Under the pieces are notes generated by a model. The model was given only the letters and a program-made list of their open reading frames with translations, was not told the origin of the DNA and ran no database searches. A stretch of DNA of 64,000 nt from positions 32,001 through 96,000 of the forward strand of contig JBDRCO010000068.1 in the NCBI GenBank assembly GCA_043821645.1, read 5' to 3'. The translations under genes and the position numbers were made by a program. Shown here piece by piece: positions 1,966 to 64,000 of the stretch. The stretch's first letter is position 1; each line of letters starts with the position of its first letter. This DNA comes from Pseudomonadota bacterium. Lineage in GTDB: Bacteria; Myxococcota; JACRCW01; JAFGSX01.

Positions 1966-3753
1966 ATGACGGTCGAGATTGCGGCGATCACTGGCATCCT
2001 TTTGGCCACCGTGGTGCTGCTCGCCAGCGAGCGGATCCCCGTGGACGTCACCGCTCTCGGCATCATGGTTGTGCTCATGGCAAGCGGGCTGCTCTCTCCA
2101 GGTGAGGCGCTCGCAGGGCTTGCCAACCCCGCGCCGGTGACCGTTGCCGCGCTGTTCGTGGTGAGCCGGGGGCTGGTCGAGACCGGTGCCCTGCAGGTCC
2201 TGAGCGACAGGCTGGTGATCTGGAGTGGCGGGCGCCAGGGGCGATTGCTGGTTCTGGTCCTGGTCACCACAGGCACGTTGTCGGCCTTCGTCAACAACAC
2301 TCCGGTGGTGGTGCTGCTGATCCCCTTGCTGCTCACGGTGAGCCACCGCAACGGGCTCAGTCCGTCGAAGCTGCTCATGCCCGCCTCGTTCATGTCCATC
2401 CTGGCTGGCACCACGACCCTCATCGGTACCTCGACCAACATCGTGGTCAGCGACACGGCCATGCAACTCGGCATCGCCCCGCTGGGGATGTTCGAGCTGA
2501 CGGCGCTGGGCCTGCCCCTCGCTGTCGTGGGAGGGCTCTACCTGTATCTGGCGTCACCAAGGCTGCTGCCCGCCCACCGGGAACCCGTGGTGGACCTCGA
2601 TGACCCCGAGCGGCAGCGCTATATCTCCGAGCTGAAGATCCCGCGAGACAGCCCCCTCATCGGTGCCAGCCCCATCGACGCCCTGTGTCAGCGCTGTCCT
2701 GACATGACGGTCTACGAGGTCCTGCGCGACACGCAGGTCATCGAACCTGCCCGGGAAGGTGTGCGCTTGCAGGCGGGTGACGTGGTCCTGGTCACGGCCT
2801 CCGCTGGCGATCTGGTGCAGATCCTCGACGGCAGACTGGCCGCCCTGCCCAAGGGCGAGAACGGAACCTTCGCTGCTCCCTTTGAAGAAAGTGCGGGCAT
2901 CGTCGAGCTCATCGTGCCGCCGAACTCGGATCTGGTGGGGCGGCGCCTTGCCAACGTGGCGCTGGGAGTGGACAGCCATGTGCACGTGATCGGCGTCAAG
3001 CGGCGTCGCACGCACTATGCGGAGCAGCGAGCCAGCGACTTGCGGCTGTCGGTCGGTGACATCCTGCTGGTTCAGGCCCCGCTCGATCACATCGATCAGA
3101 TCCGCAAGGGGGCGGACGTGATCGTGGTCGAGGATGTCCGTCAGAAGATCCACAATCGCCGCAAGGCGCCGCTGGCACTGAGTCTGTTCGGGCTGATGAT
3201 CGCGGCAGCCAGCCTGGGTCTGGTCGACATCCTGGTGGCTTCGCTAGCCGCGGCCCTGCTCATGCTGCTCACGGGCTGCCTCAGCCGCCGCGCGGCCTAC
3301 CAGTCTGTGGATACCCGGACCTTGCTGCTCATCGTGGGCACTCTCGCCCTGGGCCTTGCGCTCTCCCGCACCGGCGCTGCCGCCTTCTACGCGGATCTCC
3401 TGCTCACCTTCACCCGCGACCTCGGGCCGAGGGCGGTGCTGGGTTCGGTCGTCGTTGGCACCAGTGTGCTCAGCCTCTTCCTGAGCAACACCGCGACGGC
3501 CGTGCTCATCGTCCCGGTGGCCGTGGCCCTGGCGCAGGGCATGAACCTGGACCCGCGACCTTTCGTGGTGGCCGTGGTGTTTGGCGCATCGGCATGTTTC
3601 GCCTCGCCCCTGGGCTATCAGACCAACCTGCTGGTGTACGGTCCCGGGGGCTACAGCTTCCGCGACTACGTGCGCCTGGGTGTACCGCTGCATGGCATGG
3701 TCTGGGTGGTCGCCACGGTGGCCATCCCCTGGCTGTGGCCGTTCTCGGGTTGA
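1966..3753 (+). CDS. SLC13/CitT-family permease with two TrkA-C (RCK_C) domains
   Basis: Hydrophobic N- and C-terminal halves, SAFVNNTPVV, GTTTLIGTSTN, SPLGYQTNLLVYGPGGY and central TrkA-C repeats. Confidence 0.93.
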   Translation: MTVEIAAITGILLATVVLLASERIPVDVTALGIMVVLMASGLLSPGEALAGLANPAPVTVAALFVVSRGLVETGALQVLSDRLVIWSGGRQGRLLVLVLVTTGTLSAFVNNTPVVVLLIPLLLTVSHRNGLSPSKLLMPASFMSILAGTTTLIGTSTNIVVSDTAMQLGIAPLGMFELTALGLPLAVVGGLYLYLASPRLLPAHREPVVDLDDPERQRYISELKIPRDSPLIGASPIDALCQRCPDMTVYEVLRDTQVIEPAREGVRLQAGDVVLVTASAGDLVQILDGRLAALPKGENGTFAAPFEESAGIVELIVPPNSDLVGRRLANVALGVDSHVHVIGVKRRRTHYAEQRASDLRLSVGDILLVQAPLDHIDQIRKGADVIVVEDVRQKIHNRRKAPLALSLFGLMIAAASLGLVDILVASLAAALLMLLTGCLSRRAAYQSVDTRTLLLIVGTLALGLALSRTGAAAFYADLLLTFTRDLGPRAVLGSVVVGTSVLSLFLSNTATAVLIVPVAVALAQGMNLDPRPFVVAVVFGASACFASPLGYQTNLLVYGPGGYSFRDYVRLGVPLHGMVWVVATVAIPWLWPFSG

Positions 3754-3791
3754 AGCCCCCAGGGGACAGAAACCGAACGGAGAAGACGCTC

Positions 3792-4115
3792 GTGACGACG
3801 ACAAAGCCCCCGGAGCCTGCGGAGCGTTCCCGGACCTTGCGTCAGAGCATCCTCGATGAACTGCTCCGCGGACCGGTGACGGCACGGGAGCTGTCCTCGC
3901 TGGTCGGGCTGCGCGAGCGGGACATCATCCCGCACCTCGAGCACCTGGAGCGTTCCCTGCGGCGAGGTCCGCGCCAGCTCGTGATCGAGCCTGCCGAGTG
4001 CAAGGCCTGTGGCTATCTCTTCGAGGACAGGCGGCGCCTGGGCAAGCCCAGTGCCTGCCCACGCTGTCGCGAGCAGCGCATCGATCCCGCCAGCTTTCAC
4101 GTCGTGGGACCGTGA
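3792..4115 (+). CDS. HTH plus Zn-ribbon transcriptional regulator (COG3357-like)
   Basis: HTH (TARELSSLVGLRERDIIPHLEHL) followed by CKACG...PSACPRC. GTG start inferred. Confidence 0.85.
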   Translation: MTTTKPPEPAERSRTLRQSILDELLRGPVTARELSSLVGLRERDIIPHLEHLERSLRRGPRQLVIEPAECKACGYLFEDRRRLGKPSACPRCREQRIDPASFHVVGP

Positions 4116-7100
4116 TCAGGTGCGGCGCGGTCGGCGGCGAAGGGCATACAGCATGCCGAGTGCCAGCAGCAGGGCAGAGCTGGCACGAACACCGGAGGAC
4201 CCACAGGAACACCCTCCACCCGTGATGGTCACGTCCGAGTACGGCTCATCGTCACAGGCATCACCCATACCGTCACCGTCGCTGTCCAGTTGATCCCGGT
4301 TGGCGACCCCCGGGCAGTTGTCGAGGCTGCTGTACACACCGTCTCCATCGGGGTCCACCACGGCTAGCTCGACGCAGTCCGAGGGCTCGTCCGTGCAGAC
4401 GAATCCTGGCTCGATCTGGCAGGTGGCATCGCAGCCGTCGCCGGCCGAACGATCGCCATCGTCGCACTGCTCCCCGGCATCGATGGCCAGGTTGCCGCAC
4501 AGGGGCGTGCAGACCGAAGGCTCGCCCGCACAGGAATAGCTCGTCTCGACCTGGCAGGTGGCATTGCAGCCGTCACCGACGACCAGGTTGCCGTCATCGC
4601 AAGTCTCACCCGCGTCGAGGCTGCCGTCACCGCAGGTGAGAGCACAGACCGAGGGTTCACCCGAACAAGCGTAGCCGCTCTCGACCTGGCAGGTGGCATT
4701 GCAGCCGTCACCGACGACCAGGTTGCCGTCGTCGCAAGTCTCACCCGCGTCGAGGCTGCCGTCGCTGCAGGTCAGGGCGCACACCGAGGGCTCGCCGATG
4801 CAGGCGTAGCCCGGCTCCACCTGGCACAGGTTGTTGCAGCCGTCGCCGACAATGAGGCCGCCATCATCGCAGGCCTCGCCCGCATCGAGCGCTGCATTGC
4901 CACACAGCAGGCTGCAGGTCGAGGGCGTGCCGCTGCACACCCAGCCCGGCTCCACCTCGCAGCGATCGCTGCACCCGTCGCCGTCCCGGGCATTGCCATC
5001 GTCGCAGGCTTCGCCATCCACCACGTCGCTGTCGCCGCACACCGGGGCGCAGGTCGACGGCGTCCCGGCGCAGACGAAGCCGGGCTCGATCTGGCAGATC
5101 ACCGAGCATCCATCGTCGGCGGTCTGGTTTCCGTCGTCGCAGGCCTCACCAGCGTCCAGAGTGCCATCGCCGCAGGTCGTGGCGCAGGTGCTGGGCTGGC
5201 CCGTGCAGACCGAGCCAGGCTCGACCTGGCACAAGTCGCTGCAGCCGTCCCCGGCGACAGTGCCACCGTCGTCACAGCCTTCACTGGCCGTGATCACGCC
5301 ATCGCCACACTGCTGGGTGCAGGCGCTGGGCGAACCGGCGCAGTTCCACCCCGGTTCCACCTGGCAGGTGCTACTGCAGCCGTCTCCGGCCCGGGTGTCC
5401 CCGTCGTCACAGACCTCGCCAGCGTCGATCGCGCCGTTGCCGCAGCTCGGCGCGCAGGCGCTCGGTGAGCCGCTGCAGGCCCAGCCCGGCTCGACCTGAC
5501 AGGTGGCATCACAGCCGTCCCCGGTTGCCAGGCCGGCGTCGTCACAGGCCTCGCCAGCGTCGAGCGCGCCATTGCCGCAGCTGGCCACGCACAGCGAGGG
5601 CTCACCGCTGCACTGGTATCCAGGTTCGACCGCGCAGGCGGCGTTGCAGCCGTCGTTGCCCGCGAGGTTGCCATCGTCGCAGCCCTCGCCAGCCTGCAAC
5701 AGGCCATCCCCGCACGAGCGCAGACAGGTGCTGGGAGTCCCCGAGCAGGTCCAGCCTGGCTCGACCTGGCAGGTCTCCGAGCAGCCGTCTCCCGAGGTGC
5801 TGCCGCCGTCGTCGCAGGCCTCGCCACTGTCCAGGGTGCTGTCGCCGCAGGTCTGGGAGCAGACGCTGGGTGCGCCCAGGCACACATATCCAGGTTCGAC
5901 CTGGCACAGGTCATCGCAGCCGTCGCCCGCATCGAGGTCGCCGTCATCGCAGGCCTCGCCCAGGTTCAGGACACCATTGCCGCAGGCCGGTTCGCACAGG
6001 CTCGGGGAACCGTGGCAGGAGTAGCCGGTCTCGACCTGGCAGGATGCGTCGCAGCCGTCGCCGGTCAGGGTGTTGGCATCGTCACAGGTCTCGGCCCCCG
6101 TCCTCAGGCCATCGCCGCAGCTGGCGGCGGTGCATACGGAGGGCGTACCTGTGCATTGCCATCCTGGGTCCACCTGGCAGGCACTACAGCCATCGTCCGG
6201 CAGTCCGTTGCCATCGTCACAGGCCTCGACACCGGCCACGATGCTGTCGCCGCAGCTGGTGCCACAGCGCGAGGGCTCGGCCGAGCAAACCCAGCCGGAC
6301 TCGACCTGACACAGGGCGGAGCAACCGTCTCCGTCCGCGACTGCGCCGTCGTCGCAGCCCTCGCTGGAGGCCACCAGACCATCACCACAGCTTGAGCTGC
6401 AGGCCGAGGGCGTTCCCGTACAGACGAAGCCGTGCTCCACCAGGCAGGCCGCGTCGCAGCCGTCACCTGCCGCCGAGTTGCCATCGTCACAGGCCTCGCT
6501 CATGGTCAGGATCGCGTCGCCGCAGACCGGGACGCAGGTCGACGGGGCGCCCACGCAGAAATAGCCAGGTTCCCGCTGGCAGACAGCGCTGCAGCCGTCA
6601 CTGCTCGCCGCGTTGCCGTCGTCGCATTGCTCGCCGGCATCGAGAGCCCCGTTGCCGCAGGTGGCCACGCACACGCTGGGCGACACGCTGTTGTCACACA
6701 CGTAGCCCGGCATGACCTGGCACAGGTCGCTGCAGCCGTCGCTGACCCCTGTCACGCCGTCGTCGCAGGCCTCGTCAAAACCGACCACGCCGTCCCCGCA
6801 GGTCGTAACGCAGAAGCTGGGCTCCCCGCTGCACGACGCACCGGTTTCCTCCTGGCAGGTCGGTGAGCAGCCATCGCCGGCCTGCAGGTTCTGATCGTCA
6901 CAAGCCTCACCCGCGTCGAGCTGGCCATTGCCGCAGCTCGCGGTACAGGTACTGGGCAGGGAAGAGCTGTCGCACACGTAGCCAGGCTCGACCTGGCAGC
7001 TCGCATCGCAACCGTCCCCTGGGGCAAAGTTCCCGTCGTCACAGCCTTCTCCCGCATCGAGGCTGCTGTTGCCGCAGGTCTGGGCGCACAGCGAGGGCTG

Positions 7101-54413: not shown

Positions 54414-54906
54414 ACCTGCTGCACACCGTCCCACCGGGCCGCGCCCGAGCTGGGACGAGTACTTCATGGATTTCGCTCGCCTGGCCAGAACCCGCGCGAC
54501 CTGTATCCGTCGCGGGGTCGGGGCGGTGATCGTGCGCGATCGCCAGATCCTGACCACGGGCTACAACGGCGCGCCCAGGGGCATGCCCCACGCCGAGCAG
54601 GTCGGCTGCATCCGCGACAAGCTCGGGGTGCCGTCGGGGCAGCGGCATGAGATCTGCCGTGGCCTGCATGCCGAGCAGAACGCCATCATCCAGGCGGCCT
54701 ACCAGGGCATCTGCATTCGAGACGCGGATCTTTACTGCACCACCGCGCCGTGTTCGATCTGCATCAAGATGATCGTGAACGCTGGTATTCTGCGCGTGTA
54801 TTATCTCGAGGACTATCACGACGAGCTGAGCCGCAGCATCGCCGCCGAGGCCGGAGTGGCCCTGATTCACGTCGGTGGCGTGCGCGACGAGGGTGGCCCG
54901 ACATGA
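54406..54906 (+). CDS. dCMP deaminase family (ComEB-like)
   Basis: [31 protein letters not shown] start after GAGGAG inferred. Confidence 0.93.
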
Positions 54907-55217
54907 ACTGCCCGCACTGCCATCACGCCGACACCAGGGTCGTGGACTCGCGCGAGACCGAGGCGGGCCAGGCCGTGCGCCGGCGTCGCGTGTGCGAGGC
55001 CTGCGAGCAGCGCTTCACCACCTACGAACGCATCGAGGCCCTGGTCCCGGTCACGGTCTCGGCGCGGACGGGTCAGACCTTGCAGCGTGCTGCCGGGCTG
55101 ACCTCGAGGCGAGGCCTGGCGCGGCGGGTGGCCAGCGACGATCCCGGGAATCGGGTCCCCGACTACGGTGAGCTCGACGACACCGTGGGGTCTCCACTGC
55201 CGCCTGGCGAGGCGTGA
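54903..55217 (+). CDS. nrdR: NrdR, truncated (Zn-ribbon only, no ATP-cone); possibly a pseudogene
   Basis: [30 protein letters not shown]; the following ~60 aa are not ATP-cone-like. Confidence 0.85.
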
Positions 55218-55240
55218 GTCGCTGAGGATCGCGCTCGACC

Positions 55241-56368
55241 ATGCCACGCCGTTCCCGAGCCTCGACACCACCCTCCAACGCCCAGGACGAGCGATGGATG
55301 CAGCACGCCATCGCCCAGGCGCGGCGAGGGCTGGGGCGCACGCGGCCAAACCCGGCGGTCGGGGCGGCAGTCGTGCGCGACGGCCGGGTCCTGGGCCTGG
55401 GCTATCACCACGGAGCAGGCTTGCCGCACGCCGAGGTCGAGGCGCTGCGCGTTGCCGTGGGTGACGTCCGGGGTGCCACCATCTACGTCACCCTGGAGCC
55501 CTGCGACCACCACGGGCGCACCGGCCCGTGCACCGAGCGTCTGATCGCGGCCGGCGTCGCGCGGGTGGTCGTTGGCTGCATCGATCCCAATCACCGCGTC
55601 AATCACCGCGGCGTGGCAAAGCTCCGTCGCCACGGCATCCAGGTCGATGTGGGCGTGTGCGAGGACGACTGCCGCGAGCTCATCGCCGGTTACAGCAAGC
55701 ACGTGGTGCAGGGCCTGCCCCTGGTCCTGCTCAAGGCGGCCGTGTCGGTGGATGGGCGCCTGGCCACGCGCACGGGCGATAGCCGCGGCCTGTCCGGGCC
55801 CGAGAGCCAGGCCCACCTGCATCGTCTTCGCGCGCGTTGCGACGCCATCGTCGTGGGCATTGGCACCGTGCTCGCCGACAACCCACGGCTCACACCGCGG
55901 GGCGAGGAGCGCGAGGCCGAGGACGGCAATCCCCTGATCCGGGTCGTGCTCGACACGCAGGCCCGCACCCCCCCGAGCTCGCAGGTGGTGCGCGGGCCGG
56001 GCACCTGCATCGTCGCCGTGGGGAAGGGGGCCGCGGCCTCCAGGCTCCGGCGCCTCGAGCAGGCCGGGGCCGAGATCCTGCGCTGTCCGCTGCGGGGTGG
56101 CCATGTGTCGCTGCGCCACGTGCTGCGCACGCTGGGGCGGCGCGGGCTGATGACCGTGCTGGTCGAGGGTGGCGGCACCGTGCATGGCAGCCTGCTCCGC
56201 CAGGGCCTGGCCGACCGCGTCCTGCTGTACATGACCCCGCGCCTCATCGGTGGCGACGGCGTGCCCGTGCTGGCCGGTCCTGGCCGCCGCCTGATCGCCG
56301 AGACCGGTCTGCAGGAGCCGCGGTGGCAAGCCCTGGGCGAGGACATGCTGCTGACTGCCCGGCTCTAG
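55241..56368 (+). CDS. ribD: Riboflavin biosynthesis deaminase/reductase
   Basis: PNPAVGA, HAE, TLEPCDHHGRTGPC, SVDGR, GIGTVLADNPRLT, LVEGG. Confidence 0.96.
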   Translation: MPRRSRASTPPSNAQDERWMQHAIAQARRGLGRTRPNPAVGAAVVRDGRVLGLGYHHGAGLPHAEVEALRVAVGDVRGATIYVTLEPCDHHGRTGPCTERLIAAGVARVVVGCIDPNHRVNHRGVAKLRRHGIQVDVGVCEDDCRELIAGYSKHVVQGLPLVLLKAAVSVDGRLATRTGDSRGLSGPESQAHLHRLRARCDAIVVGIGTVLADNPRLTPRGEEREAEDGNPLIRVVLDTQARTPPSSQVVRGPGTCIVAVGKGAAASRLRRLEQAGAEILRCPLRGGHVSLRHVLRTLGRRGLMTVLVEGGGTVHGSLLRQGLADRVLLYMTPRLIGGDGVPVLAGPGRRLIAETGLQEPRWQALGEDMLLTARL

Positions 56369-56430
56369 GACCTGCGTGCTGGGATTCGGATTCGCCCCGC
56401 AGGCACTGCCGAGCTTTTCAAATCTCAAGT

Positions 56431-56557
56431 TGTGCAATTTCACGGCAGCGATGGTGAGTATTACGACACTGCGCTTCTCCGATTCAAGCGTTTGATTCTA
56501 CATACATTTGCAGAATGACGCGGTTTTTCCCTGCGGAGACTGTTGAATATCTCGACA
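56431..56557. promoter_or_regulatory. Three 17-bp palindrome-like activator sites (TGTYG..CGACA type)
   Basis: TGTGCAATTTCACGGCA (56431), TGGTGAGTATTACGACA (56452, 21 bp later) and TGTTGAATATCTCGACA (56541). Confidence 0.65.
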
Positions 56558-56653
56558 AGCCAGGCCGGGAACCACTGGGGACCAGCCGCCGCGGGGATTC
56601 AATAAACCAATTTTATCTGAAGCATACCTGGATCTACCAGAATTGATCGGTGT

Positions 56654-56669
56654 TGGCCCACCTGTTGCT
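56654..56669 (+). promoter_or_regulatory. sigma54 promoter
   Basis: TGGCCCACCTGTTGCT with GG-N10-GC spacing. Confidence 0.75.
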
Positions 56670-56708
56670 CAATGAATGGAGCAGAACCGCACGAACAGGG
56701 AGGCCGCC

Positions 56709-56792
56709 ATGGTGCCACTGCTGATGATCTCGACACTCGCAGCCTGCCTCCTCGTCGAACGAATCAGGCGCTCAGCAGACATGTCGACCTAG
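56709..56792 (+). CDS. 27-aa single-TM peptide
   Basis: GGGAGG RBS; MVPLLMISTLAACLLVERIRRSADMST; resembles the N-terminus of the 60655 protein. Confidence 0.55.
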   Translation: MVPLLMISTLAACLLVERIRRSADMST

Positions 56793-56862
56793 CGCACGGA
56801 CGCAGCGCGCGGACGCTGCGAAACGGCGCCAGGGGGGCAGGGTACGAACCCGGAGGTTGCAC

Positions 56863-57411
56863 GTGAAAGCCCCCTTGCTTGCCGTCGTGGACAGGCTCCT
56901 CGTGACCGGCGCCATCGTCATGGCAGCCGTCTTGCCCGCTCTGCTCCTCGCCCAGGTCCCTGCCGATCCGGCCGCAGCAGAGGAGAATGCCCAGGCCGTC
57001 CCCTCGGTCGCGGCTGAACCTACCGCCATCAAGGAGACCATCACCTTCGAGTCGGTGATGGGTCGGGTCGAGTTCGCACACCGCCAGCACGTCGAGGAGT
57101 TCGGCGTCGAGTGCGCGAGCTGCCACCACGAGGTGCGGGCCCGCGAACTCAAGACGCCTCACGATCGCTACCTGCGCAACCTGCCTGTCGACTGTGCGCG
57201 CTGCCACCATGCGGGCGACGCCGCGCACAAGATCCAGGCCTGCAGCAACTGCCACGACGCCGCGGCGAGCATCCCGGGGCCCGACGACCTGCGCATGGGC
57301 GCCCGCGCCGCCGTGCACCTGACCTGCGCGGCCTGCCACGAGTTCGGCCAGGGCTGCGAGGCCAGCCAGAAGTGCATCACCTGTCACGCCGGGCCCAAGA
57401 AGCCCCGCTGA
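56863..57411 (+). CDS. Pentaheme class III (c3-like) cytochrome c
   Basis: VEFAHRQH; CASCH, CARCH, CSNCH, CAACH, CITCH; signal/TM segment; GGAGG before GTG. Confidence 0.9.
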   Translation: MKAPLLAVVDRLLVTGAIVMAAVLPALLLAQVPADPAAAEENAQAVPSVAAEPTAIKETITFESVMGRVEFAHRQHVEEFGVECASCHHEVRARELKTPHDRYLRNLPVDCARCHHAGDAAHKIQACSNCHDAAASIPGPDDLRMGARAAVHLTCAACHEFGQGCEASQKCITCHAGPKKPR

Positions 57412-57446
57412 CGAGGACCGTGGGGGGAGAAGAGGCGGCGACGATC

Positions 57447-58313
57447 ATGCGACGACGCAGTTTTCTGGGAGCCCTGGGCGCCGCGGGCGCGGCACTGGCG
57501 ACGGGAAAGGCGAGGGGCTCCACCGCAGAACCCACTGCCGCGCGCGAGTTCGTGGGCGTGCTGTGCGACACCACCCGCTGCATCGGCTGCCGCGCGTGCG
57601 AGGTGGCCTGCGCCGAGACCCACGGCCTGCCCGTGCCCGACATCAAGGCGGACGGAGCCCTGGAGACGCCGCGCAAGACCAGCTTCACCCAGCGCACCGT
57701 GGTCAACCGCCACCACACCGACAAGGGCGAGGTCTTCGTCAAGCGGCAGTGCATGCACTGCTGGCAGCCGGCCTGCACCGCGGCCTGTCTCACCAACGCC
57801 ATGCTCAAGACCGAGGATGGGCCGGTAGTCTGGCGCGGCGACAAGTGCATGGGCTGTCGCTACTGCATGGTGTCCTGCCCCTTCGAGATGCCCAAGTACG
57901 AGTACGGCAGCAACAACCCGCGCATCAACAAGTGCGACCTCTGCGTGGACAGGGTGGCCCAGGGCAAGCTGCCCGCCTGCGTCGAGGCCTGCCCCAAGAA
58001 CGCCCTGCAGTTCGGTCGCAAGCGCGACCTCATGGAATCGGCGCACAAGCGCATCTACACCCACCCCGGCAGCTACGTGCGCCACGTCTACGGCGAGAAG
58101 GAAGTGGGGGGCACGGGCTGGCTCTACCTGGCCAGCGTGCCCTTCGATCAGCTCGGCTTCCGCACCGACCTCGGCGACACCCCCTATCCCGAGTACACCA
58201 AGCAGTTCCTGTACGGCGTGCCGGTGGTGTTTTTGGTCGGCCCGACGCTGATGCTGGGGCTGCACCAGCTGACCCGGCGCAGCGACGAGGTGAAGAAGAT
58301 GGAGGGCCAGTGA
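57447..58313 (+). CDS. Tat-exported multi-[4Fe-4S] protein (HybA/HmcB/NrfC family)
   Basis: MRRRSFLG Tat motif; CIGCRACEVAC, CMHC..PAC..AC, CMGCRYCMVSCP, KCDLC..PACVEACP; C-terminal TM. Confidence 0.94.
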   Translation: MRRRSFLGALGAAGAALATGKARGSTAEPTAAREFVGVLCDTTRCIGCRACEVACAETHGLPVPDIKADGALETPRKTSFTQRTVVNRHHTDKGEVFVKRQCMHCWQPACTAACLTNAMLKTEDGPVVWRGDKCMGCRYCMVSCPFEMPKYEYGSNNPRINKCDLCVDRVAQGKLPACVEACPKNALQFGRKRDLMESAHKRIYTHPGSYVRHVYGEKEVGGTGWLYLASVPFDQLGFRTDLGDTPYPEYTKQFLYGVPVVFLVGPTLMLGLHQLTRRSDEVKKMEGQ

Positions 58314-58314
58314 C

Positions 58315-59538
58315 ATGAGCACCACCTACCAGGGCCGCCCGAGCGACCTGCCGCTGTTCGACTTCCTGCTCGGCGAGCTGAAGCCAAAGGGCAAACTCCT
58401 GACGCCGTTCAACATCATCTCGGTGCCGGTGATGCTGGTGGGCGCGGTGCTCATCGCCATCCGCTTCATCTACGGGCTGGGCTCGGTGACCAACCTGAAC
58501 CAGGAGTTTCCCTGGGGCTTCTGGGTCAGCTTCGACGTCATCACCGGCGTGGCCTTCGCCGGCGGCGCCTACCTGGTCACCTTCGCTGTCTACGTGATGG
58601 GCAAGGAGAAGTACCACCCCATCGTGCGGGCCACGGTGCTCAACGGGTTTCTCGCCTACCTGTTCTACGCCATCGCCCTGACCCTGGACCTGGGCCGGCC
58701 CTGGAACATCGTCAACCCCATCATCGGCAACAGCTTCGGCTACAACAGCATCCTGTTCCTGGTGGCCTGGCACTTCATGCTCTACATGGCGTCGGAGTTC
58801 ATCGAGTTCTCGCCCGCCATCGCCGAGTGGCTCAACCTGAAGAAGGCACAGCGGGTGCTCACGGGCCTGACCCTGGTCACGGTGATCTTCGGCGTCACCC
58901 TGAGCTGCCTGCACCAGTCCGGCGTGGGCGCGCTGTTTTTGCTGGCCAAGTCCAAGATCCACCCGCTGTGGTACAGCGAGTTCATCCCCGTGCTGTTCCT
59001 GGTCTCCAGCGTGGCCTCGGGCGCCTCGGTGATCATCCTCGAGGGCAGCATCAGCCACCGTGTGTTCCGCGGCCAGCTGGGCAAGGACAAGCACGGCAGC
59101 TTTGACCAGATCGTGCTCGGCCTGGGTCGTGGCGCCGCGGTGGCGCTGTTTTTGTACTTCTTCCTCAAAGTCATGGCCTTTGTCCATGGCCACCACTGGG
59201 ACTACATCTTCACCGGCTGGGGCCAGTGGTACATGGTCGAGATGCTGGGCTTCGTGGTGTTGCCCTGCGCGCTGTTCGCCGCCGCCTACAAGCAGCAGGA
59301 TGTGCGCCTGGCCCAGGTCGCGGCGGTGCTGACCCTGATCGGCATCGTGCTCAATCGCCTCAACATCTCGCTCATCGCCTTCAACTGGAACACCGACGCC
59401 ACGTACTTCCCGTCGGTGTACGAGTTCATCGTCACCTTCAGCATCCTGTTTGCCGAGATCTGGGCTTTTCGCTGGGTGGTCCATCGATTGCCCGTGCTGC
59501 GCGAGGGCCCAGATTGGAGCCACAAGGGTTCGCACTGA
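58315..59538 (+). CDS. NrfD/PsrC-family membrane subunit (HybB/HmcC-like)
   Basis: GLGSVTNL..PWG.W..FDV..GVA..GG, DLGRPW, LHQSGVG, HPLWYS. Confidence 0.94.
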   Translation: MSTTYQGRPSDLPLFDFLLGELKPKGKLLTPFNIISVPVMLVGAVLIAIRFIYGLGSVTNLNQEFPWGFWVSFDVITGVAFAGGAYLVTFAVYVMGKEKYHPIVRATVLNGFLAYLFYAIALTLDLGRPWNIVNPIIGNSFGYNSILFLVAWHFMLYMASEFIEFSPAIAEWLNLKKAQRVLTGLTLVTVIFGVTLSCLHQSGVGALFLLAKSKIHPLWYSEFIPVLFLVSSVASGASVIILEGSISHRVFRGQLGKDKHGSFDQIVLGLGRGAAVALFLYFFLKVMAFVHGHHWDYIFTGWGQWYMVEMLGFVVLPCALFAAAYKQQDVRLAQVAAVLTLIGIVLNRLNISLIAFNWNTDATYFPSVYEFIVTFSILFAEIWAFRWVVHRLPVLREGPDWSHKGSH

Positions 59539-59567
59539 AAGGGCCGCCGGGCCCGCGGGAGAGGACC

Positions 59568-60302
59568 ATGGACACCTTCAGCTACGTCAACATCTTTGCG
59601 ACCAAGGGCATCGAGTACCTGCTCGTCATTGGCTTCCTGCTCGTCCTGTTCGCCTTTGTCCGCTACCTGGCGAAACCGGCGCCCGTACAAGCGGTCCGCG
59701 AGGCCGAGCTGCTCAGGCACAAGGGCCAGCTCGGTGTCTTGCCCGACCTGCTGCCGCTGCGGCCGCGACCCGGCGCCTTCGTGGCCTCGGGGCACACCTG
59801 CAACCGCCTGCGCGAGGACGGCTGCCTGGAGGTGAGCCTGGGTGCCCTGGTGCACCACTTACTTGGGGAGATCGAGCGGGTCGAGGTGGTTGCGCCGCAG
59901 CAGGTGCGCGCGGGCGACGTGCTGGCGGTACTGCACCAGGACGGCCGCCGCCTACACGTGCGCGCTCCCGTGGATGGCATCGTCACCGAGGTGCACACCG
60001 AACTCGTCTCGGGCAGCGAAAAGCTGATCTTCGATCCCGAGCACGCGCAGTGGCTGGTGCGCTTGCGGCCCCTGAAGATCACCGATGCTCTGGCGCGCAT
60101 GCACTATGCCGACGAGGCCAGGCACTGGCTGGATGGCGAGCTGCAGCGTCTGCGCGACCTGCTGGCGAGCAATGCCGCGGCATGGGTGGGGGCGCCACTG
60201 GCCCTCGCCGACGGCGGTACGCCGGTGCGCGGACTGGCCGGGCGCATGCCGGTGGAACACTGGCAACAGCTCGAACGCAGCTTCTTCGGCGGTCAGACCT
60301 GA
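59568..60302 (+). CDS. Membrane-anchored GcvH-like protein 1 (no lipoyl Lys)
   Basis: N-terminal IFATKGIEYLLVIGFL TM; GHT..; V.AGD.L..L.QDGR.L.VRAPVDG.V; WLVRL; ALADGG. Confidence 0.85.
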   Translation: MDTFSYVNIFATKGIEYLLVIGFLLVLFAFVRYLAKPAPVQAVREAELLRHKGQLGVLPDLLPLRPRPGAFVASGHTCNRLREDGCLEVSLGALVHHLLGEIERVEVVAPQQVRAGDVLAVLHQDGRRLHVRAPVDGIVTEVHTELVSGSEKLIFDPEHAQWLVRLRPLKITDALARMHYADEARHWLDGELQRLRDLLASNAAAWVGAPLALADGGTPVRGLAGRMPVEHWQQLERSFFGGQT

Positions 60303-60377
60303 GCTGGTGCGCACCCTGTGACCAGGTTGTGGGCGTCGGCCCAGGCGGGGTTTGCCGCGCAGAAGCCAGAATTGTAC

Positions 60378-60503
60378 TGCCGTGAAATTCAACAATCCGA
60401 CCCAGAAGACGGCAGTGGGTGGCTTTTGAAATTACAGAATAATTACGAAGGACTGAACGCATCGTGCCAATTCAAGGCCAATGGACTGTTGGATTATCCG
60501 ACA
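60378..60503. promoter_or_regulatory. Two further copies of the 17-bp palindrome-like site
   Basis: TGCCGTGAAATTCAACA (60378; its reverse complement matches the 56431 site at 15/17) and TGTTGGATTATCCGACA (60487). Confidence 0.7.
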
Positions 60504-60598
60504 AAAGCGAGAGCAAGTCCCCTGAGAGCGAATCCAGGAAATATATAAATTACCTTTAATAACAATACGATGGAATCGGATCCGCAATTCGTGATGGT

Positions 60599-60614
60599 TG
60601 GTGTGATTCTTGAA
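60599..60614 (+). promoter_or_regulatory. sigma54-like promoter (variant -12 GA)
   Basis: TGGTGTGATTCTTGAA with GG-N10-GA spacing, ~40 bp before the start codon, the same geometry as at 56654. Confidence 0.5.
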
Positions 60615-60654
60615 CATACTACTGATTGCGGGACCCTGTCCCAGGAGGTCTGTC

Positions 60655-61371
60655 ATGGTTGCGATCCTGGTCCTGACAACGGTGGTTTTCTTCGTGGCCG
60701 TCGATCTCATCCTGCAGCACCGCAAGCAGGCCCTTGGGCTGGCCTCGGCGGGAGGTGGTCAGGTCGGCGTGGTGGCGGCCCCCACCGGCCTGGCTGAGGA
60801 ACCCCGGCTGATCGTGGCCGAGGGCCATTTCCTGGCCCCCGGGCACACCGCGGTCCGCCTGCTGCCTGACGGCGCCCTGGCCCTGAGCAGCGGCCCGCTG
60901 CCCGCGCACCTGCTGGGCGCGGTCGATCGCATCGAGCTGCCGCTGCCGGGCCGAGTGCAGCGCGGCGATACCCTGGCGGTGCTGCACGGGGCTGGCCGCA
61001 GCCTTCACCTGAGCGCTCCCGTCGACGGCGTGATCGAGGCGGTGAACCGGGAGCTCGCCGCCTACCCGGGCCAGCAGGCGGTGGCGCGAGCGGCCAACAA
61101 CTGGCTGGTGCGGCTGCGCCCCCACGACCTGCAGCAGGCCCTGGCCGGATTGCACTTTGCAGCCGACGCCCAGCGCTGGTTGCAGGGCGAGGTGCAGCGG
61201 CTGCGCGACCTTCTGGCGTCGGTGCAGGGAGGCGTGGGCGAAGCCACGGCCCTGGCGGATGGCGGGCTACCGCGGCGCGGTCTGGCGCGGGAACTCGAAC
61301 CTGAGCGCTGGGCAAAGCTCGAGCAGAGCTTCTTCGCCATCCAGGATGACAGCGCAGATCGTGCGCATTGA
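60655..61371 (+). CDS. Membrane-anchored GcvH-like protein 2 (no lipoyl Lys)
   Basis: AGGAGG RBS; MVAILVLTTVVFFVAVD TM; PGHTAV; VQRGDTL..L.GAGRSL.L.APVDG.I..VN; NWLVRL; ALADGG. Confidence 0.85.
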   Translation: MVAILVLTTVVFFVAVDLILQHRKQALGLASAGGGQVGVVAAPTGLAEEPRLIVAEGHFLAPGHTAVRLLPDGALALSSGPLPAHLLGAVDRIELPLPGRVQRGDTLAVLHGAGRSLHLSAPVDGVIEAVNRELAAYPGQQAVARAANNWLVRLRPHDLQQALAGLHFAADAQRWLQGEVQRLRDLLASVQGGVGEATALADGGLPRRGLARELEPERWAKLEQSFFAIQDDSADRAH

Positions 61372-61402
61372 GCAGCGAGATCCGAGCAGGGGAGGCGCGC
61401 GC

Positions 61403-62149
61403 ATGACCGTCCAGGAGAGACCTCCGGCGGGAGGCTGGCTTCGACCAGGGGACAGGCCCTGCGAGTGGATGCGCGCGGGTCTGATGGTCTACAGGTTGTG
61501 CGACCGCGACGGCGACTGCGAATCCTGCCCGCTGGATGCGGCGCTGCGCGGTGGCCGTCTGCCCCGGGACCAGCAAGCCCGGGCAGAGGGCCCGGCTGCA
61601 AGTCCGTGGAGCTTTCCCGACGACAGGCTGTACCATCCGGGCCACCTGTGGGTGTGCGAGCAGCAGCCAGGCGTGCTGCGCTGCGGGGTCGATGCCTTCG
61701 TGGTGATGCTCTGTGCCAGCCCGTCGAGGCTGGTGCTGCCAGCCGCACAGTGTGCCCTGGACGAGGGCAAGGCTGCGGTCTGGATAGGTATGGACAGTGG
61801 ACTGATGGTGCGCCTGCGGGCACCGGTCTCGGGCACGGTGCTGCGCCGCAACCCGTCCCTGCAGCAGCAGCCAACCCTGGTCAGCCAGATGCCTTACGAC
61901 GCGGGCTGGCTGTTCGAGCTCCAGGGGGAACTCGCCGGCCAGGTGCCTGGCCTCCTCGACGCCGTGGCCATGCGCCGCCGTGCCGAGCAGCAGCGCGCTC
62001 AGTTGCTGGAACACCTGCACGAGGAGCTGGCCAGGCAGCACCCCGAACTCAAGCAGATCGCTGCCGACGGAGGAGAGCTGTCGACGGAGATCCTGCACAC
62101 CCTGGACGCCCACGTCCTGACCCGGCTGCTCGACGCGGCGCTGGGCTGA
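61403..62149 (+). CDS. GcvH-like protein 3 with N-terminal Cys cluster (no lipoyl Lys)
   Basis: CEWMRAG..YRLCDRDGDCESCPLD; YHPGHLWV; RCGVDAF; APVSGTV..NP.L..P.LV..PY..GWLF; AADGG. Confidence 0.85.
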   Translation: MTVQERPPAGGWLRPGDRPCEWMRAGLMVYRLCDRDGDCESCPLDAALRGGRLPRDQQARAEGPAASPWSFPDDRLYHPGHLWVCEQQPGVLRCGVDAFVVMLCASPSRLVLPAAQCALDEGKAAVWIGMDSGLMVRLRAPVSGTVLRRNPSLQQQPTLVSQMPYDAGWLFELQGELAGQVPGLLDAVAMRRRAEQQRAQLLEHLHEELARQHPELKQIAADGGELSTEILHTLDAHVLTRLLDAALG

Positions 62150-62230
62150 GCACAGCCACCCTCGCACCTCTCGCCAGGTCACATCGCGAAGGCTAGAGTA
62201 CCGCGGTCACAGACGGACCACGGAGCAGCG

Positions 62231-63922
62231 ATGACCTCGGCGGAGCACGCGCGAAGCAGGACAAGGTCCCCTCGACGGGTGCTGGACTCCATCGGCTTCC
62301 GCCTGGGGCTGTTCATCGTCGGCACCATCGTGCTGGGCTTCGGGGTCTTTGCCTACGTCTACCTGACCACCACCGCGGACTACGGCCGCAGCTCGGTCAC
62401 CGACGACGCGCGCAAGATCCTCGAGATCATCGAGCGCTCGACCCACTGGGCCATGTTGCACAACCAGAAGGAAGACGTTTCCGAGATCGTCCGCAACGTC
62501 GGCGAGCAGCCCGACGTGGTGGGGGTCCGTATCTTCGACAAGAACGGCCGCATCGTGTTCTCGGATCGGGAGTCCGAGATCGGCCACAAGGTCGAGTTGC
62601 ACGGCGAGGCCTGCGTCAGCTGCCACATCTCCACCACCGAGGTCATCACCCCGGACACCGACAAGCGCGTGCGCATCTTCACCGCCCGCAACGGGCAGCG
62701 TGTGCTGGGCATGACCAATGCCATCGACAACAAACCCGAGTGCTCCAACGCAGACTGCCACGCACATCCACCGGACAAGACCACCCTGGGCGTGCTGGAC
62801 GTGCGGGTGTCCCTGGCCCGGGCCGACGCCCGCAGGCACGAGGTCGAGCGCCAGGTCGTGGTGGCGGCGGTATCCCTGGCATTGCTGGCGGCGCTGGTGG
62901 TGGGCAGCTTCGTGCAGGTCATGGTGCGCCGGCCGGTGCGGCGGCTGATCGAGGGAACCGAGCTGGTGGCCAGGGGCGACCTCGACGTGCAACTGCACGA
63001 CGCCAACCGCAACGAGCTGGGTCAGCTGTCGCGAGCCTTCGACAGCATGACCCGGGACCTGCGCGAGGCGCGTGACCAGCTGGCCGAGGCGCGCGAGGCG
63101 ATCGAGAGCCGCCTCGACGAGAAGACCGACGAGCTGAGTCGAACCCAGCGCCAGGTCGTGCACATGGAAAAGATGGCCTCGCTGGGCAAGCTGTCGGCCA
63201 CGGTGGCTCACGAGCTGAACAACCCCCTGGCCGGCATCCTCAATTACGCCAAGCTGGTGAATCGCTACCTGGCCGAGCTGGATAGCTGGGCCGATCGGGA
63301 CGAGGTCGCGCGCTGCGTCAAGATGATTGGCGAGGAGGCCTCGCGCTGCGGCGACATCGTGCGCAACCTGCTGGTGTTCGCGCGGCGCACCGGATCCAGC
63401 ATGACCGAGGCCCATCTGCACGAGGTGTCGGAGCGCGCGCTGATGCTGGTCCGGCACCAGATGCAGATCGCCAGCGTGGCCCTGGAGGAGAAGCTCGGAG
63501 CCAGCGACGACGCCCTGGTGTGCGACGTGGGCCAGCTGCAGCAGGCGCTGGTGGCCTTGCTGATCAATGCCATCCAGGCCATGGCCCAGGGCGGATCCCT
63601 GAAGCTCGCCACCCGCGACGCCGGGGATAGCATCTGTATCGAGATTTGCGACAGTGGTCCCGGCATTCCCGACGACGTGTTGCCGCACATCTTCGAGCCC
63701 TTTTATTCGACCAAGCTGGACGGCCAGGGTGTGGGCCTGGGGCTGGCCGTGGTCTATGGCATCGTGCAGCGCCACGGCGGTGAGATTCGCGTCGACACCA
63801 CGCTGGGCACGGGCACCTGCTTCGAGATCACCTTGCCGCGACATCCCACCCGGGCCCAGATGGAAAGCTCCGCGCCCCCCGTGGTCGGCGCGCTGGAGCG
63901 AGAGACCGAGGTCAAGCCATGA
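62231..63922 (+). CDS. HAMP sensor histidine kinase with putative heme c periplasmic domain
   Basis: Two TMs flank a domain with CVSCH and CSNADCH; HAMP; EKMASLG..VAHELNNPL; N, G1, F and G2 boxes. Confidence 0.93.
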   Translation: MTSAEHARSRTRSPRRVLDSIGFRLGLFIVGTIVLGFGVFAYVYLTTTADYGRSSVTDDARKILEIIERSTHWAMLHNQKEDVSEIVRNVGEQPDVVGVRIFDKNGRIVFSDRESEIGHKVELHGEACVSCHISTTEVITPDTDKRVRIFTARNGQRVLGMTNAIDNKPECSNADCHAHPPDKTTLGVLDVRVSLARADARRHEVERQVVVAAVSLALLAALVVGSFVQVMVRRPVRRLIEGTELVARGDLDVQLHDANRNELGQLSRAFDSMTRDLREARDQLAEAREAIESRLDEKTDELSRTQRQVVHMEKMASLGKLSATVAHELNNPLAGILNYAKLVNRYLAELDSWADRDEVARCVKMIGEEASRCGDIVRNLLVFARRTGSSMTEAHLHEVSERALMLVRHQMQIASVALEEKLGASDDALVCDVGQLQQALVALLINAIQAMAQGGSLKLATRDAGDSICIEICDSGPGIPDDVLPHIFEPFYSTKLDGQGVGLGLAVVYGIVQRHGGEIRVDTTLGTGTCFEITLPRHPTRAQMESSAPPVVGALERETEVKP

Positions 63923-64000
63923 AACCCGAAGATCTGGGCCTGCTGATCGTCGACGACGAGTTCTCGGTGCGGGACTCGTTGCAGGCATGGTTCCGCAAGG
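63919..64000 (+). CDS. Response regulator receiver domain (partial; probably NtrC-type)
   Basis: ATGA overlap with the kinase; MKPEDLGLLIVDDEFSVRDSLQAWFRK runs off the right edge. Confidence 0.8.
   Translation, partial: MKPEDLGLLIVDDEFSVRDSLQAWFRK

Follow-up and report, generated by a model that had tools for sequence, protein, structure and literature searches.

The three GcvH-like proteins encoded at positions 59568 to 62149 of the DNA analysed here, a 64,000-nucleotide stretch of contig JBDRCO010000068.1 from a Pseudomonadota bacterium that GTDB places in the Myxococcota (hereafter the window), lack the lysine that carries lipoate in the H protein of the glycine cleavage system. The evidence supports their being three classes (B, A and C for proteins 1, 2 and 3, respectively) of a distinct family bound to a gene cassette, rather than glycine cleavage H proteins. 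We put at roughly 0.6 the probability that they are lipoate-free cytoplasmic subunits or adaptors of a membrane complex of the Hmc/Nhc type, with an Asp-Gly-(Gly) loop in their C-terminal part, written DG(G) below, as a putative docking peptide. An earlier reading of the sequence alone (the original prediction) had proposed a separate family that annotation pipelines mislabel as glycine cleavage H protein, and this is borne out both by the labels that the sources give to the relatives and by the membership of the three proteins in the cassette-bound family.

All three genes lie on the + strand. Protein 1 (59568..60302) consists of an HmcD-like anchor (residues 9-25), a GcvH-fold domain and a C-terminal extension; protein 2 (60655..61371) has an N-terminal membrane helix, a GcvH-fold domain and an extension; protein 3 (61403..62149) is soluble and carries a C-x12-C-x5-C-x2-C module (61460-61528) ahead of its GcvH-fold domain and extension. 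At the hairpin that bears the lipoyl lysine in canonical GcvH, they read LHQDGRRLHVRAPVDG (protein 1, residues 122-137; 59931..59978, + strand), LHGAGRSLHLSAPVDG (protein 2, 60982-61029) and IGMDSGLMVRLRAPVSG (protein 3, 61784-61834). The extensions contain ALADGG in protein 1 (residues 212-217, 60201..60218, + strand, that is, D215, G216 and G217), ALADGG in protein 2 (61249-61266) and IAADGG in protein 3 (62057-62074), and proteins 1 and 2 continue with WQQLERSFF (residues 232-240) and WAKLEQSFF, respectively. All the strings quoted in the original prediction were thus confirmed in the sequence, including the (L/A)ADGG motif in each protein and the W..LE.SFF tail of the first two. When aligned with HMMER, the lipoyl lysine of solved H proteins falls on G126 in protein 1 and on G133 in protein 3, and protein 2 reads GAGRS at this site, with a glycine at the canonical position; the residue that follows is arginine in proteins 1 (R127) and 2 and leucine in protein 3. 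The hairpin turn is formed by D125-G126 in the AlphaFold2 model of protein 1 (121-row alignment, mean predicted local distance difference test score, pLDDT, of 80.1) and by D131-L134 in that of protein 3 (23-row alignment, pLDDT 78.9), with a lysine in neither, so that the predicted absence of a lysine from the hairpin tip holds for all three proteins.

The fold itself is that of an H protein. The best Foldseek match was 1onl (template modelling score of 0.86 on the target), and the VIA search gave a Z score of 14.7 to 1dxm, with 128 residues aligned at a root-mean-square deviation of 2.1 over model residues 64-196, the structure searches covering the protein as far as its C-terminal 45 residues. 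The HxW and (A/S)PxxG landmarks of GcvH (PF01597, TIGR00527) and its C-terminal helix are kept as well. In contrast to GcvH, the window proteins carry membrane anchors or an N-terminal four-cysteine module and about 45 extra C-terminal residues bearing the DG(G) loop, they are without the lipoyl lysine, and they score far under the equivalog cut-off: proteins 1, 2 and 3 pass the Pfam GCV_H model only weakly (24.4, 25.6 and 38 bits; cut-off 22.2) and miss the NCBIfam gcvH equivalog TIGR00527 by far (20.9, 26.5 and 36.7 bits; cut-off 115.85). As a control, the same genome encodes one canonical GcvH on another contig (C52; VESVKAVSD, 147.8 bits), next to a 448-residue gene that is gcvP-like as read by eye. 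The three window genes are not beside gcvP or gcvT; their neighbours are cytochrome c, iron-sulfur (FeS), NrfD and kinase genes.

The loss of the lysine, which the original prediction described for the window proteins, is correct for these and extends to the family, with the qualification that most class B members carry a lysine one residue further on. A search with protein 1 returned 161 relatives; among the best 120 of these, most are about 231 residues long, the source labels, where given, read glycine cleavage H or lipoate-binding protein, and many are tagged PF01597 plus PF28260.1 in the protein database. The latter tag shows that part of class B is already catalogued by Pfam; the accession PF28260 was not mentioned anywhere in the searchable literature. 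Among 121 aligned class B proteins, the canonical lysine column holds S in 72, K in 17, A in 14, G in 9, T in 6 and D in 1, and the column after it K in 100, R in 14, E in 3 and Q, S and T in 1 each. That is, in an ungapped alignment to the Escherichia coli H protein the common lysine of the family (VDSK) is found one residue past the lipoyl position, which together with the column counts indicates that the absent lipoyl site is a trait of the family and not a local event; window proteins 1 and 2 have an arginine where most class B relatives have this shifted lysine. A pattern scan of species-representative genomes gave 29 further loci, for which all counts rest on simple calling of open reading frames (ORFs). 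A lysine at the canonical position is found there in 1 of 28 class B rows, in none of 20 class C rows and in 8 of 35 rows of the class A bin, which is the remainder left by the sorting script and also holds Cys-rich, REC-fused and fragment ORFs. The ESM Atlas returned only GCV_H or 'hypothetical' clusters for a class B query and no usable match for the four-cysteine N-terminus of class C. One library protein (P0125, 175 residues) combines a canonical-looking H protein (THEW, VESVKAV) with a class B-type DGG extension near-identical to that of locus L009, and may be either an assembly chimera or a true intermediate.

Record titles place the 29 loci in Thermodesulfobacteriota/Deltaproteobacteria, Bacteroidota, Calditrichaceae, Chlorobiota/Ignavibacteriaceae, Gemmatimonadota and others. 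Gene calling and Pfam scans revealed two gene orders. In type I, class A (a membrane helix plus a GcvH-like domain) is followed by the FeS and NrfD genes, class B (the conserved N-terminus MEGFSYVDIFATKGIEYLLVIGFLL plus a GcvH-like domain), class C (C-x12-C-x5-C-x2-C plus a GcvH-like domain), a kinase, a sigma-54 regulator and an M54 peptidase. Type II (L013, L014, L023, L027, L032 and L033) reads M54, Cys-rich GcvH-like protein, a mini-protein of 88-92 residues, class B, FeS, NrfD, cytochrome c3, kinase and regulator. Of the 29 loci, 28 have the FeS gene and 28 the NrfD gene; 23 have the kinase, 23 the M54 gene and 22 the regulator, and the loci in which a cassette part is missing end at a contig edge, according to gene maps read by eye. 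The cassette kinases are orthologous, the periplasmic domain showing CxxCH in all 16 examined, plus C-x4-CH; the M54 proteins have the HExxHxxGxxH site, which reads HEIGHTFGLRHC, and no signal peptide, which makes them cytoplasmic, that is, located in the same compartment as the DG(G) motifs. In the window the genes run cytochrome, FeS, NrfD, B, A, C, and a relative of the same phylum (G028) likewise has class B followed by an A-like gene. Matches to protein 1 were found in 4 of 30 other genomes of the phylum, so that the cassette is patchy among those searched. Other variants were seen besides. In L029 (9581-12058) and in library protein P0252, an AMP-binding enzyme of the acetyl-CoA-synthetase-like type is joined to a GcvH-like domain of class C type that has a DG(R/E) extension; the L029 fusion comes after a class C gene bearing an insertion. 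The Cys-rich pseudo-H proteins of type II (L014:6733-7650, L009:6216-7187 and P0269) contain two to three repeats of a different cysteine module (CPFL..x..C..FP.KKM.P ... CP.Y) without match in Pfam or NCBIfam.

The original prediction took DGG, lying in an added helical extension, to be the functional site. Since the VIA alignment reaches residue 196, the first helix of this extension is the ordinary C-terminal helix of H proteins, and the truly new part comprises approximately residues 197-244 of protein 1. The C-terminal regions of the three proteins align with one another and with 73 others, which shows that the motif reflects homology and not chance; D-G is present in all 76 extensions aligned across classes, and these two are the sole invariant residues. 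Within class B, the full DGG is found in 121 of 121 aligned proteins, as are G222 and W232, and F239 in 115. A profile made from the extension only, run against 1.84 billion representatives, matched 1,513 clusters at E<=0.001 (206 at E<=1e-10), and the 148 new top library matches all have D-G, as DGG (140), DGE (7) or DGA (1). Short matches to this profile (<200 residues) were considered as stand-alone extension proteins and rejected, most being fragments of full-length genes by eye. Over the 29 loci and the window, D-G stands at the aligned place in 78 of 83 GcvH-like ORFs; the five others are two REC-GcvH proteins lacking the extension (L008, L028), two class A proteins with a REC insertion (L008, L028) and the N-terminal half of a split gene (L017). 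The proposed invariance of Asp-Gly-Gly therefore stands in full for class B and elsewhere for its first two residues, the last glycine varying in classes A and C and the motif as a whole being lost from the REC forms of L008 and L028.

The most telling indications come from the type II mini-proteins. In 6 of 6 type II loci, these consist of a membrane helix, the sequence ...RLG[LFY]TMADGG[DN][RK] and a poly-Lys tail, with no GcvH domain, and in all six the mini-protein holds the place of class A. That the DGG peptide is kept on proteins without the GcvH domain argues that it is a functional unit of its own, and the DG(G)-bearing proteins are usually three per cassette, in type I, type II and the window alike. 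The idea of a functional site thus gains from the invariance of D-G and from its survival on the mini-proteins, and has to be narrowed to D-G, the only universal part. A similar string was seen in the sigma-54 regulator next to the window (L035:920-2263), whose residues ~230-246 read FEMADGGTLFLDE and contain MADGG like the mini-protein peptide; this stretch is generally found in sigma-54 activators, and the resemblance is probably a coincidence, as the preceding glycine is in a different register.

The foremost alternative, which we regard as possible but doubtful, is that DG(G) is only a structural turn, with the aspartate as a cap and a glycine at unusual angles folding the last helices back, and with the working surfaces elsewhere, for instance on the GcvH sandwich or the membrane helix. 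Both models place the motif in a short loop, which in protein 1 is flanked by beta-bridges at 213 and 219 (pLDDT block 74) and in protein 3 by helices 214-220 and 228-231 (pLDDT block 64); the conserved class B residues after the motif (G222, W232 and F239) are modelled with pLDDT 88-91; and the REC-fused class A forms manage without the motif. A turn of this sort does not readily explain, however, why the peptide and the LG.TM preceding it are kept on mini-proteins that have no domain to fold onto, nor why D-G is invariant across three paralogue classes that are otherwise only ~20-30% identical.

The connection with an Hmc-type complex rests on the neighbouring genes and on the anchor of class B. 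Upstream of protein 1, the window encodes an HmcB/HybA-like periplasmic 4Fe-4S subunit (57447..58313, + strand) with a twin-arginine signal, a C-terminal anchor and a Pfam Fer4_11 match, for which HmcB is the best NCBIfam model (334.2 bits, cut-off 420; HybA 224.2 bits, cut-off 263), and an HmcC/HybB-like membrane subunit of the NrfD family (58315..59538, + strand; NCBIfam HmcC 402.3 bits, cut-off 550; Pfam NrfD 61.4 bits), which is 51-61% identical to cassette orthologues from other phyla. Against the NCBIfam HmcD model (NF045712, cut-off 34), the score is 13 bits (E 0.076) for the N-terminus of protein 1 and 21.2 bits (E 2.1e-4) for that of a typical class B protein, and HmcD is matched at E<=0.01 by 111 of 121 class B members (best 1e-6), all below the cut-off. 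The HmcD-like anchor, together with the HmcB- and HmcC-like genes, means that the membrane part resembles HmcBCD/NhcBCD. As for topology, a signal peptide and a multihaem cytochrome c precede the FATKG-EYLL helix and the pseudo-H domain in a library fusion protein of 413 residues (P0154), and a REC domain precedes the GcvH-like part in L008 (3726-5773), L028 (3752-5818) and P0136. These fusions, and the basic residues after the helices, indicate that the short N-terminus is periplasmic and that the GcvH-like domains are cytoplasmic. L008 and L028 also carry a second kinase. A complex prediction for the HmcC-like subunit with class B (alignments A4 and A2) gave a score of 0.09, with the mark at 0.32, and weighs neither way on binding.

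Protein 1 is peculiar among class B proteins in that its cytoplasmic body scores 83-91 bits against class A bodies and at most 71 bits against class B bodies, and is 50% identical to the body of protein 2. It thus looks chimeric, its anchor being of class B (HmcD-like) and its body of the class A type, which suggests gene conversion between the adjacent paralogues encoding proteins 1 and 2. The W..LE.SFF tail is common to these two proteins because their bodies are partly homogenised.

Taking these observations together, we favour the view that the window proteins are three pseudo-H proteins, that is, cytoplasmic GcvH-fold domains that would no longer act as swinging-arm carriers. Protein 1 would be tethered to the membrane by its HmcD-like helix, with its short N-terminus in the periplasm, and protein 2 by a plain N-terminal helix, while protein 3, with its four-cysteine module, would be soluble. 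Along with the HmcB-like FeS protein, the HmcC-like NrfD-type subunit and the periplasmic cytochrome c, they would make up a quinone-linked membrane complex of the Hmc/Nhc type, whose genes are inherited together with those of a dihaem sensor kinase, a sigma-54 activator and a cytoplasmic M54 metalloprotease as a single cassette. The signature of the family is a G-x4-D-G-(G) loop past the ordinary H-protein C-terminal helix, a self-standing peptide module; all three window proteins have this loop together with the GcvH fold and are encoded beside HmcB/HmcC-like genes. We infer that the three proteins sit on the cytoplasmic face of the quinone module as accessory subunits or adaptors, and that the DG(G) loop serves as a docking or recognition peptide for a partner shared within the cassette, so that changes in the state of the membrane complex would be passed on to the kinase, regulator or protease arm. 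The partner could be the NrfD-like subunit on its cytoplasmic side, the M54 protease, or the kinase and regulator. That REC domains are fused to such proteins, and that kinase, regulator and protease are constant parts of the cassette, argues for signalling or regulation rather than electron carrying.

Several observations weigh against this view. At its third position the motif has glycine in all 28 class B rows of the loci, and G, E or R in classes A and C. The membrane-anchored class A proteins with an inserted REC domain (L008 and L028) are without the motif, which must be dispensable in some designs, and the DGG loops are modelled with only moderate confidence (pLDDT 74 and 64). Since a minority of relatives (17 of 121 in class B) keep a lysine at the canonical position, lipoylation of some members is possible. 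The matches to HmcB, HmcC and HmcD are all under the NCBI cut-offs. Finally, NrfD-type subunits carry no haem, so that there is no obvious route for electrons to the cytoplasmic proteins, and the role proposed for these is an inferred one.

A second alternative, which seems to us unlikely, makes DG(G) a processing or modification site: a regulatory switch would act by M54 recognising or cleaving the three proteins, or by a chemical change at Asp-Gly. Of the 29 loci, 23 have the M54 gene and the remaining six are truncated by a contig end (gene maps by eye); its product, with HExxHxxGxxH and no signal peptide, shares the compartment of the motifs; no cassette-specific proteins other than the DGG proteins share an invariant peptide; and the poly-Lys tail after DGG in the mini-proteins looks disposable. 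Against this, the 27 residues past DGG in class B are conserved and confidently folded, unlike a pro-peptide. We know of no established archaemetzincin substrate. Taken to its full extent, with the DG(G) peptides as M54 recognition or cleavage sites, the cassette would be a redox-gated proteolytic switch, an idea to which we give little credence: depending on the state of the quinone module, relayed by the HmcD-like helix, the peptides would be exposed or hidden and sigma-54-dependent transcription set accordingly, and in type II the target may be a divergently encoded, CbcBA-like cytochrome pair. Such a reading would, if true, provide the first substrates for bacterial archaemetzincins and a signalling role for the H-protein fold.

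The cytochrome pair was observed on the minus strand of four type II loci (L014, at 3045-5817, L023, L032 and L033), where the genes for a cytochrome c with 13 CxxCH and for a protein of the cytochrome b561 type are transcribed divergently from the cassette; judged by gene content, this is a CbcBA-like pairing. The CbcBA genes serve low-potential respiration in Geobacter and are under a sigma-54 regulator (bioRxiv 10.1101/2021.04.15.440034). The Geobacter CbcBA/BccR operon was considered as an instance of the same cassette and rejected, the operon as described being without NrfD or GcvH-like genes; the divergent CbcBA-like genes of the four type II loci are all that remains of the connection. 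In the window genome, no cytochrome b561 gene was found near the cluster, and b561-type matches lie on other contigs.

That the proteins are still acyl (lipoyl or biotinyl) or sulfur carriers, like GcvH or LbpA, by way of a non-canonical residue is very improbable in spite of the GcvH fold and of the class B lysines at the +1 (100 of 121) and canonical (17 of 121) positions, as the window proteins have glycine at the canonical site followed by arginine (1, 2) or leucine (3), the +1 position varies between K, R, E, Q, S and T across the family, a one-residue shift of the target lysine was reportedly found by Wallis and Perham in 1994 to abolish lipoylation, and Pfam scans revealed neither a ligase gene nor Hdr-like genes in the cluster, the only BPL_LplA_LipB match of the genome being on another contig (C130).

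Among known systems, the Hmc and Nhc complexes of sulfate reducers (HmcABCDEF, NhcABCD), like the cassette, combine a periplasmic cytochrome c with HmcB-, HmcC- and HmcD-like parts in one operon. In the cassette, however, all matches are below the NCBIfam cut-offs and the HmcD-like helix is fused to a pseudo-H domain, and there are, in addition, two more pseudo-H proteins, a haem sensor kinase, a sigma-54 regulator and an M54 protease; no HmcE/HmcF-like genes (cytochrome b plus HdrD-like) were found between 56857 and the M54 gene. In the sHdr system of sulfur oxidation, too, GcvH-like proteins (the lipoate-binding LbpA proteins) have been taken into respiratory or redox machinery apart from glycine cleavage. 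They retain the lipoyl lysine and are accompanied by dedicated ligases and Hdr-like genes, whereas the window proteins have no such lysine and their cluster, in Pfam scans, no ligase or Hdr domains. GcvH-L of Streptococcus pyogenes (PDB 5a35; structural match with Z 11.7) is also a GcvH-fold paralogue outside glycine cleavage. It is lipoylated, and its operon also encodes a sirtuin, a macrodomain protein and a ligase; none of these operon partners is present here, and GcvH-L is without the DGG extension. Lastly, NF045810, a 'GcvH-related protein' of Desulfovibrio-type genomes, and TIGR03077 ('not_gcvH') are matched at E<=0.01 by 116 and 119 of the 121 class B members, respectively, and protein 3 has a sub-threshold match of 30.7 bits; the cut-offs of 150 and 144 bits are far from reached, and the models stand for shorter proteins, of 167 and 110 positions, that have no anchor. 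The cassette is apparently undescribed, its closest known counterparts being GcvH (for the fold only), Hmc/Nhc (for the membrane part only), LbpA, GcvH-L, NF045810 and TIGR03077. A literature search, with subscription journals outside its coverage, gave nothing linking GcvH-like proteins with NrfD- or Hmc-type modules.

In the window, which has a G+C content of ~67%, seven + strand genes extend across 56857-63922: the cytochrome c, FeS and NrfD genes, those of proteins 1 to 3, and the kinase. The first encodes a small periplasmic multihaem cytochrome of the c3/c7-like type (56857..57411, + strand; Pfam Cytochrom_CIII 39.6 bits, five CxxCH), and the last (62231..63922, + strand) a sensor histidine kinase with HAMP, HisKA and HATPase domains in Pfam and a periplasmic domain containing CxxCH and C-x4-CH. 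The sigma-54 response regulator (L035:920-2263) and the Peptidase_M54 gene (L035:2267-2797) follow on the same contig just past the window end. Directly upstream of the cassette, NrdR-like and RibD genes (54750-56368) seem unrelated to it. With respect to gene starts, that of protein 2 is most likely the ATG at 60655 rather than the TTG at 60610, because of a GGAGG upstream and an N-terminus (MVAILV...) resembling those of orthologues; protein 3 starts at the ATG at 61403, not inside 61157-61402.

The AT-rich region upstream of the operon contains a sigma-54-type promoter-like site, TGGCCCACCTGTTGCT (56654..56669, + strand), 188 nucleotides 5′ of the cytochrome gene and with one mismatch to TGGCAC-N5-TTGCW, the consensus for such promoters. 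Sites of this type are not above chance in the window as a whole (40 found for 34.8 expected), so that only its position supports this one. A second AT-rich region, the 352-nucleotide spacer ahead of protein 2 (60303..60654, + strand), has short motifs in common with the upstream region, as the pairs D5 (56538-56558 and 60484-60504) and I3 (56430-56448 and 60377-60395). That is, between 56430-56558 and 60377-60504, GACTGTTGAATATCTCGACAA is shared with GACTGTTGGATTATCCGACAA, and TTGTGCAATTTCACGGCAG with its own near-complement; these common motifs may be candidate binding sites for one regulator. An Rfam scan of 56000-64000 gave no match.

The family is widespread, occurring in several phyla, and belongs to an apparently undescribed cassette that brings together a quinone-linked membrane complex and a haem-containing sensor. 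If the reading preferred here is true, a common gene cluster of anaerobes currently annotated as 'glycine cleavage H protein + hydrogenase-2-like subunits' would be an undescribed complex of the Hmc/Nhc type, with a cytoplasmic face made of cofactor-less H-protein folds and linked to a haem sensor kinase, a sigma-54 activator and a protease. At least 1,513 protein clusters would then have their annotation corrected, NrfD-type complexes would gain a new kind of accessory subunit, and the invariant D-G loop would offer a handle on how such complexes address their regulators, with a bearing on how anaerobes sense and adjust to low-potential electron acceptors.

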